Shown here: positions 23,921 to 32,593 of the stretch, piece by piece | How positions within the stretch are numbered: position 1 is the first letter of the stretch | How the letters are laid out: the number at the start of each line of letters is the position of its first letter | Notes under the pieces: generated by a model | What the model was told of the DNA's origin: nothing | The model's database searches: none | Seen by the model: the letters and a program-made list of their open reading frames with translations, nothing else | Program-made: the position numbers and the translations under genes | Origin: Candidatus Falkowbacteria bacterium | GTDB taxonomy: Bacteria > Patescibacteriota > Patescibacteriia > UBA11705 > JABHMO01 | Assembly (NCBI GenBank): GCA_018674305.1 | Contig: JABHAL010000010.1 | Span: 25,708 to 89,707 of the forward strand | DNA length: 64,000 nucleotides | Reading direction: 5' to 3'

Positions 23921-23959
23921 ACAAAAAAAGAGGACTAATTCGCATTGCGAATTAGTCCC
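23921..23959 (-). terminator. Strong rho-independent terminator on the minus strand
   Basis: Perfect 12-bp stem ggactaattcgc/gcgaattagtcc with a 3-nt loop, followed on the minus strand by a 7-U run (plus A-run 23923-23929). Confidence 0.75.
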
Positions 23960-25233
23960 TTTACCATCGTTGAACATTGACTTGTGGGCCAACATCCTCG
24001 TACATTAAAGTTTGATTTTACCATTACAGTTTGTCTTTGAGACACGGTTTGTTCATTTGTGAAGTGCTAGTTTTGAAGCTTGGCTTAACCAATTCTTGAT
24101 TTTTGTTTTGTTCTGACCGAGGTCAGTTTCCAACTATTACAAGTTTGGCGACTTACCGTCCCGAAGGATGGCTAAAGATAGTTTATCACTCTATGATTGC
24201 TCATTGAGTTTCCGCTATCAAGTCTTACTTTTGCTTTTTCTTCTAGTTCTTCTGAACATTCCTTGTGTTCTGTTGTCTTGTCAACACTAGGCTGACATCG
24301 CGTGAAGGTTAATTGTCTGACCGAAGTCAGTGAGGAACATTTCGCTAGCCGAAGCTTTTGATTTGTTCTTACTTTTAACTTTCCAGAATACTTTGCTCTT
24401 TGGACATTAGCTGTTTCGTTTACTTGCTGGATTTTTGTTTTCTTCCTTTCGGAGGATCACTTTGTCCACTGGGGTAAACTACTAGTTCGTTTTCTCTGTC
24501 GTTCTGTAGTCTTGCTAAAGCAGTTTTACCAAGGAGTTTTTCGTTTTTACACAAAATACTTCTTGATTTTTTTGCTTTGATGCAAGTTGCTTGCGTTGAA
24601 GATTGGCTCTTGATCTAGTCTTGGCTAGCTTTTTTCTTCTGTTACCGAAGTAACGTCAGAATCCGGTTAACTTTGATTTTGATCCGTCATAGCTTATCTT
24701 CTGCATGCCCACTGATCGATTTTGATTGCGAATTAGCGACGTTTAACTTACTTGCCTCGAAAGGTTTTCTGTCTTTGTCTACTGCTAATTTACTGTTTAG
24801 CTCCATTTATAATAGTAGTCGTTGGTTTTTCCGAAGAAAATCCTGACTGCTAAATAGAGGCCAAATCTGTCATTGCCTTTTCTGAGTGGGTTGGTTACCA
24901 CTACAGTAAAAGCTCGAGATCTGTGGTGCATGTTAGTGTCAAGGCGCTTTTCACGGCTGTGCCCTTAAGTCAGTTGTCCAAGTTAATTTGGAGTATTGCT
25001 ACTCTTTGGTTAACTTTTTCTCCTGTCTCAGGACTCCACCTCAGAACTTGCATTCTTTGGTTTCCCTTGTCTTTACTTGCTCAATTACTTGTAATGAACT
25101 TTGTTGATGGTAATTCACATTATACTCGTATATCAAAACCTGTCAAGTGCCTAACTGTGGATAACTTTTAACTCTATTTTTTGTTTAATTTTAGAGGAAA
25201 ACTTTACCCCATTGACAAAATTATATATTATTG
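23960..25233 (-). ncRNA. Candidate large (~1.3 kb) structured ncRNA on the minus strand
   Basis: Only one short track ORF (24923-25171). The plus strand is T/G-rich and A-poor, so the minus-strand RNA is A/C-rich. At least five ccgaag sites on plus correspond to C(UUCG)G on minus, each flanked by complementary stems (for example gttac-CGAA-gtaac at 24640 and ctgac-CGAA-gtcag at 24318). It ends at the 23921-23959 terminator. Confidence 0.45.
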
Positions 25234-25240
25234 TTAATCT

Positions 25241-25270
25241 TTTATATCTGCTATAAATTTATAATAGCAA
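25241..25270 (-). promoter_or_regulatory. Possible promoter on the minus strand (TTGCTA-18-TATAAA) for the large ncRNA candidate
   Basis: Reverse complement of 25241-25270: ttgcta, an 18-nt spacer, then tataaa. Moderate match to consensus. Confidence 0.3.
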
Positions 25271-25304
25271 GTGTTTATTAACAATTGACCACTAGAAGGA
25301 GGGA

Positions 25305-25997
25305 ATGATGGAAGCTACGCTAATTGGTGTTTTTGTTTTAAGTGTACTTATCTTCTTGTATTGGACATGGACACTTATGTTTGTACGGAACATAGACACT
25401 GAAGCCTTTATGGCCCAGATTCAAAAACTGATCATGGCCAACAACCTTGACCGAGCAATTAAACTTTGTAATGCTGCCCCAAATGCAGTCATGACTCAGC
25501 TGACTAAAAGCGTTTTGATTTGCGCTAATCAACCACACAGATTATATCTAGCCTATCTACAGACGACTTTCAAGCTGAATCACGAGGCGAAAAACCTAAA
25601 AAAATCTCCAACCCGAATCACAATTATTATTCTCATTTATGGGCTACTAGTAATGGGTTTCGTTGTGCAACCTCTAGGCTGGACGTTGGGTGCGGTTCTA
25701 GGCATCATTGCTTTTGTTTTGCTATCGCTGACCTCTGCGTTCATTTCCGCTCGTCTTGTCAAAACCAAAAAGGACAAGTTATACCTATTCAGGCTGATGG
25801 ACCTCTTGCAATATCGAATGGCTAATTACAACACGGATGAATCCAACGAAGGCCTAACTTTTATGCAAGCCAGGCCACTAACTGAAGACGAACTAGCCAG
25901 GCGCATGTCAACTGGGGCGCCTCCCCCGAAGGTTAGACCTTCGCCAGTGGACGAACTCAAATCAAAATTGCAATCCGAACTATTACCCAAGCTTTAG
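25305..25997 (+). CDS. Hypothetical membrane protein (paralog A of a tandem pair)
   Basis: 230 aa with ribosome-binding site GAAGGAGGG. Topology is TM1, a soluble segment containing NNLDRAIKLCNAAP, a TM2-TM3 hairpin, then a C-terminal tail. GC is elevated (~45-48%). Confidence 0.65.
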   Translation: MMEATLIGVFVLSVLIFLYWTWTLMFVRNIDTEAFMAQIQKLIMANNLDRAIKLCNAAPNAVMTQLTKSVLICANQPHRLYLAYLQTTFKLNHEAKNLKKSPTRITIIILIYGLLVMGFVVQPLGWTLGAVLGIIAFVLLSLTSAFISARLVKTKKDKLYLFRLMDLLQYRMANYNTDESNEGLTFMQARPLTEDELARRMSTGAPPPKVRPSPVDELKSKLQSELLPKL

Positions 25998-26009
25998 GGA
26001 GGACGAATA

Positions 26010-26708
26010 ATGCTATTTGTGATTGGTATAATACTCTGTGTATTTGCAGGTTTAACGATCCTTGGTTCCATAATCGAAATAATGAAAGAAAGTATCGCTA
26101 TTACTGCCTTCATGCATCAGGTAAAAAAGCTGGTTCTGAGCAATAATATTGATCGAGCAATTAAGTTGTGTAACTGCGCGCCCCATTCAACGTTAGCCGT
26201 TGCAGCTAAAAAGCTGTTAACTAGAGCTAACAAGAACAGTGCGCTGTACCAAACATTTTTACAAGCCAAAATGGAACTTGAGATAGAAAGTTGGTCAAAC
26301 AAGTCTGCTACCAAATGGGCTTTGTGGAACCTAACACTTGCAATTGGATTTTTCACTGCTGGCTCTATGTACAACATGTTATTCGAGGGAGCGCTTTTGT
26401 GCGGTATTGCCTATACCAGTTTCTCACTAGCACAGTTTGTGTCCTCATTCAGACACAAACTGCTTTGCAAAGAGATTCCAGCCCTAGAGGACTTACTCCA
26501 AACACTAATGGAGCGCTTAGGGGTAACTGCCCCTGACTTTGCTCTATTAGATAATCCATCTCAGGAACTGCTAGCTAAACAAGAAAAGCTAATGGAAGCC
26601 TTTGAGCGGAGTTACACCAAAGACAAAGATGCTGGTCGAGAAACTCGACCGGTAGAAGCTGTTTTCCTCGAGAAGATAGATCTACGAACCGGTCTTTTCC
26701 CTGCTTAG
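26010..26708 (+). CDS. Hypothetical membrane protein (paralog B of the tandem pair)
   Basis: 232 aa with ribosome-binding site AGGGAGG. It shares NNIDRAIKLCNCAP and the same topology as 25305-25997. Confidence 0.65.
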   Translation: MLFVIGIILCVFAGLTILGSIIEIMKESIAITAFMHQVKKLVLSNNIDRAIKLCNCAPHSTLAVAAKKLLTRANKNSALYQTFLQAKMELEIESWSNKSATKWALWNLTLAIGFFTAGSMYNMLFEGALLCGIAYTSFSLAQFVSSFRHKLLCKEIPALEDLLQTLMERLGVTAPDFALLDNPSQELLAKQEKLMEAFERSYTKDKDAGRETRPVEAVFLEKIDLRTGLFPA

Positions 26709-26770
26709 ACAACCAAAAAGTCGATTGTTCACAACAATCGACTTTTTTATTATTCAATACTAAATGTCTA

Positions 26771-27385: not shown

Positions 27386-27394
27386 ACAGATTAC

Positions 27395-27908
27395 AGATTT
27401 GTACGGGTGTACGGATTAATTAGGATTTAATTAATATTAACTACTCTTCTAAATTTTACTCCTTCAGGTGAAAACAAGATTAACAAACCAACCTCTAATT
27501 TCAATAGTTTTAAGTATTCATTTATTTGATCAAAGTCTTTTCTAATAAATCTTTTACCCACTTTCAACTCAATCAATATTAAATCAAAAAATAATATATC
27601 CAAACGACTATTACCAATTTTTTCACCTTTATATTTAACTGGCAAATTAATTTGAGAACTTACTGGAATATTTTTACTTTCAGAATCCTTTATTATTGCT
27701 CTTTCATAATATTTTTCTCTGTATCCAGATCCTAATTCATTATAAACATCAAACATTATTCCAATTATAATTTCTGTTTTGTCTTTATGAAGGAGTTCCA
27801 TATATGTCTATTCTATCAAATTTTTCAAGATCCGTACATCCCAACTACCGCGAACAGGCGCACAAATCCGTTAACTGTTTTTGTGAATCCGTACATCCGT
27901 ACAAATCT
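27395..27908. mobile_element. Cassette of about 514 bp bounded by 23-bp terminal inverted repeats and carrying a GxxExxY-family gene
   Basis: The left end 27395-27417, reverse-complemented, reads aatccgtacacccgtacaaatct. The right end 27886-27908 reads aatccgtacatccgtacaaatct, a 22/23 match. Extra TCCGTAC iterons lie at 27830 and 27913. Confidence 0.5.
27427..27801 (-). CDS. GxxExxY protein (PD-(D/E)XK-fold family, TIGR04256-like)
   Basis: 124 aa. ...IIIGIMFDVYNELGSGYREKYYERAI...GNSRLDILFFDLILIELKV fits the GxxExxY family pattern. Confidence 0.7.
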   Translation of the reverse strand: MELLHKDKTEIIIGIMFDVYNELGSGYREKYYERAIIKDSESKNIPVSSQINLPVKYKGEKIGNSRLDILFFDLILIELKVGKRFIRKDFDQINEYLKLLKLEVGLLILFSPEGVKFRRVVNIN

Positions 27909-27923
27909 AAAATCCGTACCTAT

Positions 27924-27961
27924 ATAAAAAAACAGAGCCTGGTTAGAGAACCAAGGCTCTG
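27924..27961 (-). terminator. Rho-independent terminator after lipoprotein 1
   Basis: cagagcctgg...ccaaggctctg hairpin followed on the minus strand by a U-run (plus aaaaaaa 27924-27932). Confidence 0.7.
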
Positions 27962-27972
27962 TTGTGTTATTA

Positions 27973-28515
27973 CTATTTATCTTCGATAACACGTACCATT
28001 GCCGGCGGAGTGGCCAGCTGAAGTGGCTGATCGCACAGCATGTACGTCCCGCTCCACTCTAGGTAAACATCATCCGTAGTAAAGAAGAAAACCGCGTCAC
28101 CATTGGTTCCGTACGAACCATCGAGCTGCGGGCTTTCCACAACCTTACCACCAACACGTCTACGTGCAAAAGGATCATCGACAATCTGTTCACCAGTAGT
28201 TAACTTGGAGTTAACACTGGAGACCTTACCCTTGATAGTATGAAAGGCCATCACCTTACCATAGCTAACCAGGTAAATGTAGCTGATCTTGTTCGGATCA
28301 TTGAAACGGTTAAGCCGCTTTGACAGGTTATCTCGCTCCAAAGAACTCTCGATCTTGGGCGGCGGCGTGGCCTTGATCAGACGACCCTGCTGCTCTTCCG
28401 TGAAATTGGCCTCTGCCTTCTGGGTCTCACCCTGGCCCTCGTAGGACTCATCATCACAACCAACAAAGGCAGTGAACGCGAAAACACACGCAATTGCCAG
28501 CATAATTTTCTTCAT
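27973..28515 (-). CDS. Lipoprotein paralog 1 (unknown family)
   Basis: 180 aa with signal and lipobox AFTAFVGC. Conserved core LIKATPPPKIESSLER...ISYIYLVSYGKVMAFHTIKGKV...VESPQLDGSYG...PLQLATPP. Local GC is about 50-55%. Confidence 0.7.
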   Translation of the reverse strand: MKKIMLAIACVFAFTAFVGCDDESYEGQGETQKAEANFTEEQQGRLIKATPPPKIESSLERDNLSKRLNRFNDPNKISYIYLVSYGKVMAFHTIKGKVSSVNSKLTTGEQIVDDPFARRRVGGKVVESPQLDGSYGTNGDAVFFFTTDDVYLEWSGTYMLCDQPLQLATPPAMVRVIEDK

Positions 28516-29102
28516 TTCGACACCTCCTCGTCGCTCGTATCAGTCTTGGGATTATCCTCAATAATGCGAACCATCTCCGGAGGAGTAGACAGCTGAAGTG
28601 GTTGGTCGCTCAGCATGTATGCACCGTTCCACTCCAAGTAAATATCGTCCGTGGTGAAGAAGAAAACCGCATCGCCATTAGTTCCATATGAACCATCGAG
28701 CTGCGGGCTTTCTACTACCTTACCAGACCTGCCCTCATGATGAGCAAAAGGATCCTTCACGATCTGCTCACCAGTAGTCAACTTTGAATTAACACTAGAA
28801 ACCTTTCCCTTGATTGCATGAAAGGCCATGACCTTACCAAAATCGACCAAGTAGATATAACTGATCTTGTTGGGATCATTGAAACGAACAAGACGCTTGG
28901 CCAAATTCTCACGCTCCAAAGAGCTCTCGATCTTGGGCGGTGGGGTGGACTTGATCAGACGACCCTGCTGCGCTTCCGTGATCTTAGCTTCTTCCTTCTG
29001 GGTCTCACCCTGGCCCTCATAAGTTTGCTTTTCCGTCTTGCAGCCAACAAAGGCAAACGCCAGAATCAAGCTAAACAAAACCAACGTCTTTCCAGTCCTC
29101 AT
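28512..29102 (-). CDS. Lipoprotein paralog 2
   Basis: 196 aa with lipobox AFAFVGC and ribosome-binding site GAGGAGG. It is about 70% identical to paralog 1, and its stop overlaps the paralog 1 start (ATGA). Confidence 0.7.
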   Translation of the reverse strand: MRTGKTLVLFSLILAFAFVGCKTEKQTYEGQGETQKEEAKITEAQQGRLIKSTPPPKIESSLERENLAKRLVRFNDPNKISYIYLVDFGKVMAFHAIKGKVSSVNSKLTTGEQIVKDPFAHHEGRSGKVVESPQLDGSYGTNGDAVFFFTTDDIYLEWNGAYMLSDQPLQLSTPPEMVRIIEDNPKTDTSDEEVSK

Positions 29103-29226
29103 CGCAACCTCCTCAAGGTTATTAAGATGAATACACTAACAGATAGTGTAAACATCCTATAATATCACATATGAAATACTTTGTCAATAGCGACTGTAAT
29201 TTTACCACAAAGTCGCCCCTTTGAGA

Positions 29227-29263
29227 TAAAAAAACAGAGCCTGGTTAGAGAACCAAGGCTCTG
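29227..29263 (-). terminator. Rho-independent terminator after lipoprotein 3 (duplicate of the 27924-27961 module)
   Basis: Same hairpin and A-run. About 60 bp including the gene 3' end is duplicated (aaaaaacagagcctggttagagaaccaaggctctgtYgtgttattactaYttgtcttcgat). Confidence 0.7.
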
Positions 29264-29274
29264 TCGTGTTATTA

Positions 29275-29817
29275 CTACTTGTCTTCGATCATCCGGACCA
29301 TGGCCGGTGGCGTAGACAGTTGCAGTGGCTCAGTAAGCCACATGTAATCACCTCGCCACTGGACCAATACTTCTTCTGTAGTCCAGAAGAAGATCGCGTC
29401 TTCACTCGGACCATAGGATCCGTCCAATCCAGGACTTTCCATCGTATGTCGAGTTCGTCCAGCGCCAGTTGATCCATCGCCGACCTCGACAACCTGATCA
29501 CGCGTAGTCAACTTAGACGAACAATAAGTAACCTTGCCCTTCACCGTATGAAAGGCCATCACCTTGCCATAACTGATCAAGTAAATATAAGAGATTCGAT
29601 CTTCACGATTGATCTCCTTGAGATACTTCACCAGATTCTCCCGCTCTAGAGAATTTTTCATCTCCGGCGGAGGAGTCGACTTGAGTAACCGTTCCTGGTT
29701 CCTCTCTGTCATTTCCATCTCATCGATGGTAGTCTGGCCAGTATCCAGCGCCTTACCGCAACTGATCATACCCATAGCCAGAACACAGAGAGTAACAATC
29801 GTCATAAGCTTCTTCAT
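29275..29817 (-). CDS. Lipoprotein paralog 3 (diverged)
   Basis: 180 aa with lipobox GMISCG. It is about 45% identical to paralogs 1 and 2 and conserves the TPPPEM, ISYIYLISYGKVMAFHTVKGKV and PLQLSTPPAMVRMIEDK blocks. Confidence 0.7.
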   Translation of the reverse strand: MKKLMTIVTLCVLAMGMISCGKALDTGQTTIDEMEMTERNQERLLKSTPPPEMKNSLERENLVKYLKEINREDRISYIYLISYGKVMAFHTVKGKVTYCSSKLTTRDQVVEVGDGSTGAGRTRHTMESPGLDGSYGPSEDAIFFWTTEEVLVQWRGDYMWLTEPLQLSTPPAMVRMIEDK

Positions 29818-29826
29818 GTCAATCTC

Positions 29827-30342
29827 CTACTGGCCGGGGATAGTGAAATCTGCCGGATGCGTCGCCGGAAGATCATCAGTTTTGAACAGCTCACGGTTGG
29901 CCATTTCAGTTCGCGCATTGTACTTGGCCACCACGTCTCGCCGTTGATTCTGCAGACCCAGCACGATCGTGTTGAGTCGAGAATACTCGGTCTTGTCCTC
30001 GAACGTCCAATCCTTGCGCGGACCAGCGTCTTCCTTGAAGCGCTTGAGCGCCGCGTCAGAATTGACGATCTTGGACTCCAGCGACAGGATATCCTGATTC
30101 GTCTGCTTGAACCACTCGTAGTTCTGGATCACGTTGTCCGCGTCCAGAGTCTTCTCCATGATCTTCACAGCCTGCTCGCCGGGATAACACACCACCCGGA
30201 CAACCGTCCCGATGAGTCCCAACACAATCACAACTGCGAGGATCTTGAAGAACATACTCCAAGGTCCACCTTTGGCCAGGTTGTAGGCCGTGTTTTCGTA
30301 CTTTCGCCCAACATCATCCCATCGATCATCATTCCGTGTCAT
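29827..30342 (-). CDS. LemA-like membrane protein (low-confidence family assignment)
   Basis: Ribosome-binding site AAGGAGGTG before the internal ATG (MTRNDDR). One transmembrane helix (FFKILAVVIVLGLIGTVV) then a helical region with YNARTEMANRELFK, loosely LemA-like. The track ORF extends to 30369. Confidence 0.45.
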   Translation of the reverse strand: MTRNDDRWDDVGRKYENTAYNLAKGGPWSMFFKILAVVIVLGLIGTVVRVVCYPGEQAVKIMEKTLDADNVIQNYEWFKQTNQDILSLESKIVNSDAALKRFKEDAGPRKDWTFEDKTEYSRLNTIVLGLQNQRRDVVAKYNARTEMANRELFKTDDLPATHPADFTIPGQ

Positions 30343-30473
30343 CTCCACCTCCTTAAGGTTTAGACACAAAAATACTTCTATTCAGCAACACAGTTTTCAT
30401 AAGAGTATAGCATAAAGATTAAATACTGTCAACCCTATTACCTAAATTTACAACAGAAATACTATTTGAAACA

Positions 30474-30497
30474 AAAAACAGGCAAATAACGCCTGCT
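30474..30497 (-). terminator. Rho-independent terminator after the helicase gene
   Basis: caggc-aaataac-gcctg followed on the minus strand by a U-run (plus aaaaaa 30474-30479). Confidence 0.5.
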
Positions 30498-30511
30498 TAA
30501 TAACAAAGAAA

Positions 30512-30628
30512 CAATTAACCAAATCCTAAATAAACACAAAATATCAATGCTTAAAATATAAAAATAACTTTTGAATTTAAATATTATAATTTGTTTAGAA
30601 TTTAGAGTTTGATTCATTGATCAATTTG
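30512..30628. repeat. Intergenic repeat family, copy C (5'-truncated)
   Basis: acaattaaccaaatcctaaataaac...cttttgaattt...ttagagtttgattcattgatcaattt. Confidence 0.6.
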
Positions 30629-32593
30629 TCAATCTACATAAATAACATCTTCGCCCTCATCATTAAACCCATACGGCTGATGTCCTTGCTTCATATACTT
30701 TGATTCATCTAACTCACGGATGAACATAGACGGTTTGGAAAATACCTCACCGAACTTGTAACTAAACGAACGAACCGGGAACAACATATTCAATTCATCC
30801 TTGGCTCTCGTGGCCGCCACGTAAAACAAACGTCGTTCTTCCTCCAACTCGCGCGGATTGTCAATAGATTTATGGTGAGGAAAATGACCATCGCGTAATC
30901 CGATTATAAAAACTACTGCCCACTCCAAGCCTTTGGCTTGATGAATTGTGGACAAAATCACTGCGTTCTTGTCATGTTCATGCTCATCAGCAAACGACTC
31001 ACTAAGCATCACGTCAGTTAAAAGTTTATCCAAATCATTATACATTGCCACAAAGTTAACCAATTGACCTAAGTCATCCAGGCGGTCACGATAATTCTCA
31101 TAAGCATTTTTCAAATACTCTTCATAACCATGCGCTAAAACATATTCCACTGCCTCGGCAATATAACCTTTTTGATTTTTATCTAAATCTTTCAGAAAAC
31201 TAAAAGTTGAAGAAATCCTTCCCCAGCTAATTGCAGCTTTACCCGTTAACTTTAAATTTCCATCGATTAATTCGCTCAGCTCACCGAATTCCTGAATTTT
31301 TTTCCAAATAACTTCAGCTCTTTTCATTCCAATGCCTTCATACATTAATAAAATTCGTTTCCAGGAGACCTCATCCTGATAGTTAGTTAAAACTTTTAAA
31401 TAGGCCACAACGTCTTTGACGTGAGCTTGCTCAAAATAGCGCATACCACCGCGTACAACGTAAGGAATATTTTGTTTTGATAGTTCCAGTTGAATTTCCG
31501 CTGATTGAAAAGTTGCGCGATACAAAACTGCCATTGATTCATAATTAACACCATCACGATACAGTTGCATTATTCTTTTGATAATCAAACTAGCCTGTTG
31601 TTGCTGATCACGTGCGGCAATCAAAGTTGGTAAAATATTATCTCCTCGGTTTGGTTTTAATGCTTTTTGAAATTGATCCACGTTATGCTCAATACTATTA
31701 TTTGCTAAATCTAATATTTGAGGAGTACTACGATAATTAGTTTCAATTTTGTAAATTTTGGTTTTTGCAAACAGTTTAGGAAAATTTAATATGTTCTTTA
31801 CATCAGCAGCGCGAAATGAATAAATACTTTGTGAATCATCACCAACTACCAGTACATTATTATGAAATGACGACAAATGTCGAATAATTTCCGCTTGGAT
31901 GTAATTTGTATCTTGATATTCGTCAACCAAAATGTATTCAAACTGCTTGGCAAATCTTTCTTTGATATCTGGGAATTGCTCTAACAGTCTCAACCAATTC
32001 ACTAAAAGGTCATCAAAGTCCATCACGTTGGCAACTTTTTTCTTTTTATTATAAATAAAAGCAATCTCTTCACATTTTTCCGCAATAAAATCAGGGTAAG
32101 AATAATACACTTCAACCACCTCACGAATATCTTGATTGGTGTTTCGGGAATAACTAATCATACCTTGAACAATACTGGCCTTAGGAAAATTCTGCCCTTT
32201 AACATTCAACGCCAATTCTTCCATCGCGGCCTTAACCAAACTGATTGAATCAGCTTGATCTAAAATATTGAAGTTTCGATTATAATCTAGCTTGTCAGCG
32301 TATTTACGAAGAACTCTATTGGCAATACGATGAAATGTACCGCCCCACAAATGATCAGGGTTAAATCCTAACAAATTTTCTACTCTGGCTAACATTTCAT
32401 TGGCCGCTCTATTGGTAAACGTAACCAACAATATACTTTCAGGTTTTATCCCACATTCTACTAAATAAGCCACACGAAAAACTAAAGTGCGTGTTTTTCC
32501 TGACCCGGCGCCCGCCAAAACCAAACAAGGGCCGTCCGATTCGGTAACGACTTGATATTGTTCTTTATTTAGTAGTTTTTTATACTCAATCAT
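30629..32593 (-). CDS. UvrD/PcrA/Rep-family ATP-dependent DNA helicase
   Basis: 654 aa. Motif I is LVLAGAGSGKTRTLVFRVAYL, with DEYQDTN-like motif II and the rest of the helicase motifs. Confidence 0.88.
   Translation of the reverse strand: MIEYKKLLNKEQYQVVTESDGPCLVLAGAGSGKTRTLVFRVAYLVECGIKPESILLVTFTNRAANEMLARVENLLGFNPDHLWGGTFHRIANRVLRKYADKLDYNRNFNILDQADSISLVKAAMEELALNVKGQNFPKASIVQGMISYSRNTNQDIREVVEVYYSYPDFIAEKCEEIAFIYNKKKKVANVMDFDDLLVNWLRLLEQFPDIKERFAKQFEYILVDEYQDTNYIQAEIIRHLSSFHNNVLVVGDDSQSIYSFRAADVKNILNFPKLFAKTKIYKIETNYRSTPQILDLANNSIEHNVDQFQKALKPNRGDNILPTLIAARDQQQQASLIIKRIMQLYRDGVNYESMAVLYRATFQSAEIQLELSKQNIPYVVRGGMRYFEQAHVKDVVAYLKVLTNYQDEVSWKRILLMYEGIGMKRAEVIWKKIQEFGELSELIDGNLKLTGKAAISWGRISSTFSFLKDLDKNQKGYIAEAVEYVLAHGYEEYLKNAYENYRDRLDDLGQLVNFVAMYNDLDKLLTDVMLSESFADEHEHDKNAVILSTIHQAKGLEWAVVFIIGLRDGHFPHHKSIDNPRELEEERRLFYVAATRAKDELNMLFPVRSFSYKFGEVFSKPSMFIRELDESKYMKQGHQPYGFNDEGEDVIYVD

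Follow-up and report, generated by a model that had tools for sequence, protein, structure and literature searches.

How did a GC-rich island with three related lipoprotein genes come to lie in a genome of lower G+C content (GC), and what can its proteins do there? The question is raised by a stretch of 64,000 nucleotides (nt) from Candidatus Falkowbacteria bacterium (GCA_018674305.1, contig JABHAL010000010.1, positions 25,708 to 89,707 of the forward strand), which is referred to here as the window. A first-pass annotation, made from the letters alone, described a triplicated lipoprotein and an upstream "LemA-like" gene in this island and proposed that they had been acquired horizontally and then amplified locally.

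The island is very probably a horizontally acquired cassette of ~2.5 kb that lies in a hot spot between the genes for the helicase UvrD and a deoxynucleoside kinase (dNK) in a Falkowbacteria-like genome of the candidate phyla radiation (CPR; Patescibacteria). It encodes a virus-typical module of two components. The first is a signal-anchored transmembrane protein (TM) with an extracytoplasmic three-helix bundle, and the second is a membrane-tethered lipoprotein (LP) with a helix-helix-beta-sheet arrangement, which is present in three copies. The genes appear as two self-sufficient units, and the TM-LP pair is a conserved unit that also occurs in other CPR bacteria, on haloarchaeal megaplasmids, and in phages whose hosts are monoderm or diderm bacteria. 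The features of the cassette and of the segment that holds it are as follows, with lengths of products in amino acids (aa), ribosome-binding sites (RBS), GC at third codon positions (GC3), and predicted promoters and terminators.

27387-30630, no strand assigned: lineage-specific segment from the UvrD stop codon to the dNK start; holds the cassette and a PD-(D/E)XK (PDDEXK_3) gene with GTACGGAT repeats
30404-30432, minus strand: promoter-like sequence P1 before the TM gene; TTGACA-17 nt-TATACT, TG before the -10 element, 11/12 matches
29827-30342, minus strand: TM partner gene; 171 aa, helical bundle, signal-anchored with N-in/C-out topology, RBS AAGGAGGTGGAG, GC3 0.69
29275-29817, minus strand: LP3; 180 aa, lipobox MISC, divergent copy
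29226-29289, minus strand: repeat copy A; last codons and stop of LP3 and an intrinsic terminator (hairpin 29234-29264 and T run)
29159-29187, minus strand: promoter-like sequence P2 before LP2; TTGACA-17 nt-TATTAT, TG before the -10 element, 11/12 matches
28512-29102, minus strand: LP2; 196 aa, lipobox AFVGC, acidic C-terminal tail
27973-28515, minus strand: LP1; 180 aa, lipobox AFVGC, sister copy of LP2
27924-27987, minus strand: repeat copy B; last codons and stop of LP1 and an intrinsic terminator (hairpin 27932-27962 and T run)

Layout and acquisition of the cassette

The four genes lie at ~27930-30475 and all code on the minus strand. The GC is 0.489 in the cassette and 0.362 in the remaining window. 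When 400-nt windows are taken over 27800-30400, the GC is 0.445-0.545, and 1-kb values across the whole window are 0.32-0.40. The difference that was first given as 50-55% against 33% is therefore present in kind, with its figures somewhat exaggerated. The departure can also be seen in GC3, which is 0.692 for TM, 0.552 for LP3, 0.563 for LP2, and 0.558 for LP1. The 41 other open reading frames (ORFs) of the window have a GC3 of 0.306 +/- 0.038 and a maximum of 0.455, so the island genes lie 6-10 standard deviations out.

The triple lipoproteins, their conserved sequence blocks, and the ATGA overlap of the LP2 stop with the LP1 start were all found where the first-pass annotation had placed them. 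LP3 starts 9 nt past the TM stop, and its RBS overlaps the TM stop codon. The strong Shine-Dalgarno sequence that had been described before the TM gene is also present, as AAGGAGGTGGAG lies upstream of an ATG. This ATG is the likely start, and a database protein that is 99% identical (P0121) is likewise 171 aa long. A TTG at 30369 begins the ORF when it is called mechanically and was judged not to be the likely start.

Promoters (sigma-70-type) and terminators were called by consensus scan. Intrinsic terminators were called at 29257-29240 and 27955-27938, and the ribosome-binding context AACCTTnAGGAGGT is found downstream of both P2 and P1. Two promoters and two terminators give the anatomy P1-TM-LP3-terminator and P2-LP2-LP1-terminator, and the four genes appear to form two self-sufficient transcription units. 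A duplicated unit of gene 3' end plus terminator had been described after LP1 and LP3, and a modular build had been proposed from it. Both descriptions agree with the layout, which consists of two promoter/gene/terminator units with near-identical terminator modules. Copies A and B are 57/58 identical from the stop codon on. The 31-nt terminator hairpin occurs only twice in the window, with 0 occurrences expected by chance, and an exact search of IMG/VR with it for a donor gave 0 matches. LP1 and LP3 have a synonymous divergence (dS) of >2.5. Next to the 57/58 identity of the terminator modules, this indicates that recombination or conversion took place recently within the island.

The cassette is flanked by the genes for a UvrD/PcrA helicase and dNK. 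Named relatives of the UvrD are Falkowbacteria, Parcubacteria, or Patescibacteria, and one LP copy in the databases is named from a metagenome-assembled genome (MAG) of Candidatus Falkowbacteria. Loci that were fetched for comparison are given here by number. Nucleotide homology to the closest relative, L191, stops at 30631 (UvrD stop) and resumes at 27386 (dNK start). The UvrD-dNK-ClpB synteny is kept, and a TM/LP homolog is absent, in L191/L192 (UvrD 94% identical), L193 (80%), and L195/L196 (73%). The spot between UvrD and dNK holds a 23S_rRNA_IVP gene in L191 and a 617-aa ORF in L193, and in L195 it is empty, with a gap of 53 nt. Since three relatives lack the cassette at the syntenic site, it is a lineage-specific insertion, and the varying contents of the spot point to an insertion hot spot and to a recent gain of the cassette. 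No integrase, transposase, or clear direct or terminal repeats were found in the insert, and no tRNA was found in the window. The edges of the insert have weak AT-rich inverted repeats only. The DNA that flanks the cassette is AT-rich, host-like, and intergenic, with the UvrD terminator and promoters.

Horizontal acquisition, as first proposed, is upheld by the atypical composition, by the absence of the cassette between UvrD and dNK in three relatives, and by the nearest protein relatives, which are in phage contigs. Synteny in relatives had been named beforehand as the check on this proposal; the relatives lack the cassette and the acquisition stands. It is hardly credible that a phage fragment was misjoined into a CPR contig during assembly, as the sharp compositional step and the missing integrase or repeat-bounded ends could suggest, since identical junctions in independent assemblies from other samples and assemblers (L001, Joint Genome Institute, 91.5 kb; L002, ENA, 67 kb) show that the cassette is not a chimera, the LP2 protein (identical to P0001) is indexed on 29 contigs, and the AT-rich flanks with their UvrD terminator and promoters are host-like. 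Contigs of this kind recur in the Joint Genome Institute samples 3300024243 and 3300024259 and in ENA assemblies of the series ERZ272502xx.

The island itself is ordinary, as it is a phage-type, moron-like cassette gained by horizontal transfer. It shares with genomic islets and phage "morons" an atypical GC and GC3, presence or absence at a conserved site, its own promoter and terminator, and phage-related cargo. It differs from them in that an integrase, a transposase, a tRNA target, and clear direct repeats are missing and in that the host belongs to the CPR. In addition, the spot exchanges small selfish genes, PDDEXK_3 here and 23S_rRNA_IVP in the closest relative.

The PDDEXK_3 gene (27427-27801, minus strand; PF13366, E 5e-28) is bracketed by GTACGG(AT) repeats. 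Four minus-strand copies are upstream of the gene (27832, 27889, 27897, and 27914), and two inverted copies are downstream (27401 and 27409). The 23S_rRNA_IVP gene at the same spot in L191 sits behind a similar GTACGGAT-containing leader. This suggests that small selfish-gene cassettes replace one another at the UvrD-dNK hot spot.

The TM-LP pair and its distribution

Hidden Markov models of both proteins were run over the fetched loci, and 94 non-redundant loci with an LP gene were obtained. The TM partner is immediately upstream of LP in 69/94 loci and immediately downstream in 15/94. It is elsewhere in the locus in 4/94 and absent in 2/94, and in a further 4/94 the LP is cut by the contig end. 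The downstream partners include a divergent form of 120-130 aa, which was first noticed as the sole recurrent neighbour. No other neighbour is conserved across the LP loci. TM and LP are an obligate pair, and it is this pair and not the lipoprotein alone that is conserved, a point that the first-pass annotation had missed. Their predicted anchors would place both proteins at the outer face of the cytoplasmic membrane, where they probably act together.

A large insertion inside the pair was seen only in the T4-like Rhizobium phages. In Rhizobium phage RHph_I46 (L012, 4992-8334), the LP and TM genes are split by a gene for a 745-aa von Willebrand factor type A protein. A third conserved gene follows TM and LP in Halogeometricum (L202:5651-6127) and Natrinema (L203:5672-6175). 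Its product has ~160 aa and a Tat-like signal, to which Natrinema adds a lipobox-like Cys, and neither the window nor the phage loci have a counterpart of it.

In the AlphaFold2 model of the TM partner (predicted local distance difference test, pLDDT, 90.3), the transmembrane helix runs on into a three-helix bundle. The ectodomain takes up residues ~55-171, and its helices include those with NYEWFKQ and YNAR..MANR. The flanks of this helix have a mean of 2.83 Lys and Arg residues before it and 1.75 after it, and the flanks are positive-inside in 46 vs. 8 of 72 homologs. This bias points to an N-in/C-out topology. The protein had been called LemA-like, and this label is not sustained. No match to LemA (PF04011) was found in Pfam at E<=1 for the window protein and 27 family members, and the LemA structure 2ETD is not listed in the PDB profile search at E<=10. 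When a profile of 72 sequences was aligned by hhalign with the sequence of 2ETD (T. maritima), the probability was 0.45% and the E-value 0.13 over 28 columns. These three negative results speak against LemA, and the topology alone is alike. The likeness includes a single N-terminal transmembrane helix that is followed by an all-helical domain of ~120-150 aa, a neighbouring gene for an exported alpha/beta protein, and a short C-terminal motif (G..N....A.YN.....N..F), which is the sole stretch that hhalign aligned. LemA genes are often paired with genes for TPM-domain proteins.

The lipoboxes that had been named for the three copies (AFVGC, AFVGC, and MISC(G)) fit the PROSITE-type pattern, with the Cys at residue 20-21 in each copy. 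Across the family, 146/216 members have a lipobox and 196/216 have a Cys within residues 11-45. The LPs are thus predicted to be bacterial lipoproteins and substrates of signal peptidase II. The family has >1,200 relatives at 90% clustering and, among 1.84 billion representatives, forms 648 clusters at 50% identity. Its members are all single-domain proteins of ~170-220 aa. In the structure model (pLDDT 76.5), the mature protein of ~160 aa has two helices and a sheet of about seven strands. There are ~24 invariant, mostly polar residues in LPs from hosts that range from Actinobacteria to haloarchaea, and the motifs SLER, GKVSSVNS, and DGSYG.NGDA.FFFT are near-invariant. Differences between copies and between homologs are concentrated in the signal peptide, the linker, loop 113-124, and the C-terminal tail, in between these motifs. 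Loop 113-124 is hypervariable, with frequent indels and, in several homologs, Cys pairs.

An LP homolog on a 358-kb jumbo-phage contig (L008:8450-9031) opens with MRKRFTLIELL, a class III signal that resembles those of type IV pilins and precedes the Cys (Pfam N_methyl, E 0.003). The class III signal is an alternative membrane anchor for the LP domain.

The lipoprotein family had been reported as unrecognised, and it stays so. No match was found for LP or TM in Pfam, NCBIfam, PADLOC (0 families), or PHROGs, including searches with 27-31 family members, and the homologs in cultured phages have no PHROGs family. Profile searches of PDB sequences with both proteins gave nothing significant, and fold searches against PDB and BFVD gave nothing informative. 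Literature searches on phage lipoproteins, superinfection exclusion, LemA, LemA with TPM, and Patescibacteria turned up nothing on the TM-LP family; an apparent mention of LemA in an antiphage paper was the beginning of the word "lemanii."

LP1 and LP2 are 86% identical in the mature part, with a ratio of nonsynonymous to synonymous divergence (dN/dS) of 0.13 and a dS of 1.04, which is near saturation. LP3 is on a long branch; it is 58% identical to LP1 in the mature part and <=58% identical to anything. The dN/dS between copies is 0.13-0.17, and the copies appear to be under strong purifying selection and functional. In the tree, LP1 and LP2 are sisters and LP3 falls outside their group. Tandem LP duplications have occurred independently in L004, L018, L019, and L063, where each pair is monophyletic, and a further tandem pair is found in L197. 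The order TM+LP+LP is already present in the phage relatives L004 and L197. Local amplification after acquisition, which had been proposed, is therefore upheld only in part. The sister relationship of LP1 and LP2 fits it, but LP3 is not a sister to them, LP1 and LP2 combine a dS of ~1.0 with a GC3 of ~0.56 in a host with a GC3 of 0.31, and the phage relatives are already duplicated. The duplication may thus predate the transfer, and the LP copies may have arrived already duplicated.

The pair is carried mostly by viruses. Pattern scans, with motifs that were derived from relatives of this CPR protein, found LP in 252 IMG/VR contigs and in 17/185,579 species-representative genomes. With tblastn, 54 GenBank phage records were found to have LP, all annotated as hypothetical or "membrane protein." The hosts of these phages are Arthrobacter, Rhizobium (T4-like Pootjesviridae), Microbacterium, Fusobacterium, Curtobacterium, Tenacibaculum, Klebsiella/Serratia (jumbo phages), Streptomyces, and Streptococcus. 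Pairs in cultured phages include gp28-29 of Microbacterium phage Floof, gp69-70 of Arthrobacter phage Auxilium, and the homologs EVB81_220 and EVB81_222 of Rhizobium phage RHph_I46. Most TM-LP loci are phage contigs. The nearest relatives of the window's TM and LP on long contigs are in phage-like contigs that encode MazG, an intein-containing ribonucleotide reductase, DNA polymerase A, 7-deazaguanine genes, and an AcrVA2-like gene. The neighbours of the pair on phage contigs are RNA ligases, ssDNA-binding protein, dCMP deaminase, DNA polymerase, and helicase, and not holin or endolysin.

Cellular carriers are found among CPR bacteria and haloarchaea. Two CPR carriers have cellular contexts, beside ribosomal proteins L10 and L7/L12 (L003) and beside ATP synthase (L019). 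In a third CPR carrier (L018), a large serine recombinase and a ParB-methylase adjoin the pair, and the context is prophage-like. The pair is also present on the haloarchaeal megaplasmids pHBOR01 of Halogeometricum and pNPA200 of Natrinema, in non-viral surroundings. On phage contigs, the GC of the cassette follows that of its flanks, mostly within +/-0.05 over a range of 0.305-0.684, so a high GC is not imposed by the proteins themselves. The GC of the cassette in CPR genomes lies above that of its flanks by +0.127 (the window), +0.118, +0.088, +0.054, and +0.043. The pair is an uncatalogued, strictly paired, and highly conserved extracytoplasmic module that is common to viruses and to cells of both prokaryotic domains.

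TM and LP are also found in a GTDB "archaeon" MAG (L016, JANQNF010000005.1), with a family A DNA polymerase directly downstream. This looks like a phage contig that was binned into an archaeal MAG.

Possible functions of the pair

The reading that is preferred here, and only tentatively, is that the cassette is a phage-derived module for exclusion or defence at the level of the envelope that has been domesticated by the CPR cell. The two proteins would form a complex on the outer side of the cytoplasmic membrane. When encoded by a phage, the pair would modify the surface of the infected cell and so block the entry of further viruses (superinfection exclusion). The CPR cell would have captured the module together with the module's own promoters, and its envelope would thereby be guarded constitutively against the phages of the CPR cell itself. 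The extra LP copies, which differ mainly in loop 113-124, could serve as specificity variants that broaden the range of recognition. Since monoderm, diderm, CPR, and archaeal envelopes are all found with the pair, the target can be neither an outer membrane nor peptidoglycan.

Known exclusion proteins include Ltp of the Streptococcus thermophilus phage TP-J34, Llp of T5, Cor of phi80/N15, and Imm and Sp of T4. Those that are known have early expression or are expressed from the prophage. Monoderm as well as diderm hosts have phages with such proteins, which can be stand-alone, moron-like units with their own promoter and terminator. They are phage-encoded, exported, and membrane-tethered and act at the cell surface, as TM and LP probably do. 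Unlike them, the module described here is an obligate unit of two proteins, and its conservation across distant hosts, archaea among them, is far greater. Searches of Pfam, PHROGs, and PADLOC gave no sequence or profile similarity between the two groups, and exclusion by TM-LP is a proposal only. Ltp and Llp are treated in PMC3952083 and PMC9586334.

Several points weigh against exclusion or defence. We infer the TM-LP complex from co-occurrence only, and the confidence of the LP model is low exactly at the two most conserved motifs. Neither protein is similar to a known exclusion or defence protein in PADLOC, Pfam, PHROGs, or NCBIfam. The ~24 invariant polar residues of LP resemble those of an enzyme or of a binder of a universal ligand, and not a fast-evolving anti-phage surface protein. 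The cellular copies in non-viral contexts, on haloarchaeal megaplasmids and beside ATP synthase or ribosomal genes in CPR bacteria, could mean a housekeeping role. CPR bacteria are over-represented among the cellular matches, but with a bias, as it was relatives of this CPR protein that supplied the search patterns.

If exclusion or defence is the function, an uncatalogued and very widespread family would join the systems of phage-host conflict. The family occurs in archaea and in phages, jumbo and T4-like ones among them, whose hosts belong to at least five bacterial phyla. In CPR bacteria, which have small genomes with few known systems, it would also be one of the few defence-type functions identified. 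The idea would be testable in cultured SEA-PHAGES phages of Microbacterium and Arthrobacter and in Rhizobium phages. A broader version is more doubtful. In it, the pair would be a virus-host conflict module, not described before, that spans the domains and represents a new class of virus-encoded entry exclusion. This exclusion would take place at the outer face of the cytoplasmic membrane, independently of the type of envelope, and would have been domesticated repeatedly by genome-reduced CPR bacteria and haloarchaea as innate immunity, with the tandem LPs as specificity variants.

The main rival to exclusion is a module for envelope or membrane homeostasis, in which the pair would be an enzyme or a binder that acts on a component present universally at the outer face of the cytoplasmic membrane. 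With the pair, viruses would condition the host envelope during infection, and CPR bacteria and haloarchaea would keep it for their own envelope physiology and not for defence. This is rather unlikely. It fits the many invariant polar residues and the motifs SLER, GKVSSVNS, and DGSYG.NGDA.FFFT, the presence of the pair in monoderm, diderm, CPR, and archaeal settings, the strong purifying selection, and the cellular, non-prophage contexts of L003, L019, L202, and L203. The architecture of LemA+TPM-domain gene pairs is similar to that of TM-LP and can be taken as a lead only; however, homology to LemA is missing. The family is also overwhelmingly viral and rare in cellular genomes, and repeated tandem duplication, together with a hypervariable loop, would sooner be expected of proteins for recognition or conflict. 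If the pair is an enzyme or binder after all, it would be a new conserved extracytoplasmic pair that is common to viruses and both prokaryotic domains.

The first-pass annotation had suggested that the lipoproteins could be surface-exposed proteins for host interaction or for the masking of phage receptors. The link to phages is strong. Host interaction in an episymbiotic CPR cell would mean adhesion to or recognition of a host bacterium. As the cell has no outer membrane, the LPs are predicted to be exposed at its surface. In addition, the three copies have diversified and have a variable loop, and CPR bacteria are frequent among the few cellular carriers. This frequency, however, is subject to the bias of the search patterns. 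The pair is also present in lytic phages of free-living bacteria and in haloarchaea, where episymbiosis is irrelevant, and the closest relative does without the cassette, which argues against a part in the core lifestyle. Adhesion is thus quite improbable.

A two-component, spanin-like lysis pair that was left by a prophage, with an i-spanin-like TM and an o-spanin-like lipoprotein, is less probable by far. It was rejected, since hosts that lack an outer membrane also have the pair. In gene order and topology, the pair does resemble separated spanins. In lambda Rz/Rz1 and T4 PseT.3/PseT.2, the membrane protein is of type II and has a helical ectodomain, and its gene is directly upstream of or overlaps the lipoprotein gene, and on the phage contig L010 a cell-wall hydrolase gene is ~1 kb downstream of the pair. 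The o-component of spanins is a short, proline-rich, and largely unstructured outer-membrane lipoprotein that is encoded in the lysis cassette and restricted to hosts with an outer membrane. In contrast, LP has a folded domain of ~160 aa, and the helical domain of TM is predicted to be an intramolecular three-helix bundle. The pair lies among replication genes, outside lysis cassettes; in phage Floof it is eight genes downstream of the endolysin, with unrelated genes between. It is carried by phages of monoderm hosts (Microbacterium, Arthrobacter, Curtobacterium, Streptomyces, and Streptococcus), by CPR bacteria, and by haloarchaea, none of which has an outer membrane. For annotation, the two genes are best treated as one unit with neither a LemA nor a spanin label.

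Inhibition of lysozyme and binding of peptidoglycan were rejected as general explanations, as the pair is present in haloarchaea, which lack peptidoglycan.

Elements near the cassette

A second lineage-specific indel is found near the cassette at 25195-26710 on the plus strand. It is absent from L191, where its flanks are contiguous. It has a slightly raised GC of 0.40-0.46 and two ORFs, 25305-25997 (230 aa) and 26010-26708 (232 aa). The 232-aa protein has no Pfam family.

Beyond this indel, a candidate structured non-coding RNA of ~1.15-1.2 kb is located at ~23925-25145 on the minus strand, between dNK with the two extra ORFs and the genes for a 138-aa protein and ClpB. There is no ORF >82 aa in it, stops of all three kinds are found in every frame, and the transcript would be A-rich. 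It has a promoter (TTGACA-17-TATAAT) at the 5' end, an intrinsic terminator at the 3' end, and many hairpins with UUCG- or GNRA-type caps. No Rfam family was matched at gathering score or at E<=1. At this position, the gene calls of L191, L195/196, and L002 have a gap of 1.3-1.5 kb.

The candidate RNA is 91.9% identical to that of L191 over 1276 nt, and the flanking coding sequences are 86-88% identical. RNAalifold on the pair of sequences from the window and L191 gave 362 base pairs, none of them broken. It also gave 5 double compensatory changes, including one in the stem of the terminator. These two alignable sequences are suggestive of a large structured non-coding RNA. The L195 version has diverged, with 48% identity in a three-sequence alignment, and can be aligned only in the first ~120 nt. 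It also possesses a promoter and has 11 C(U/C)UCGG loops.

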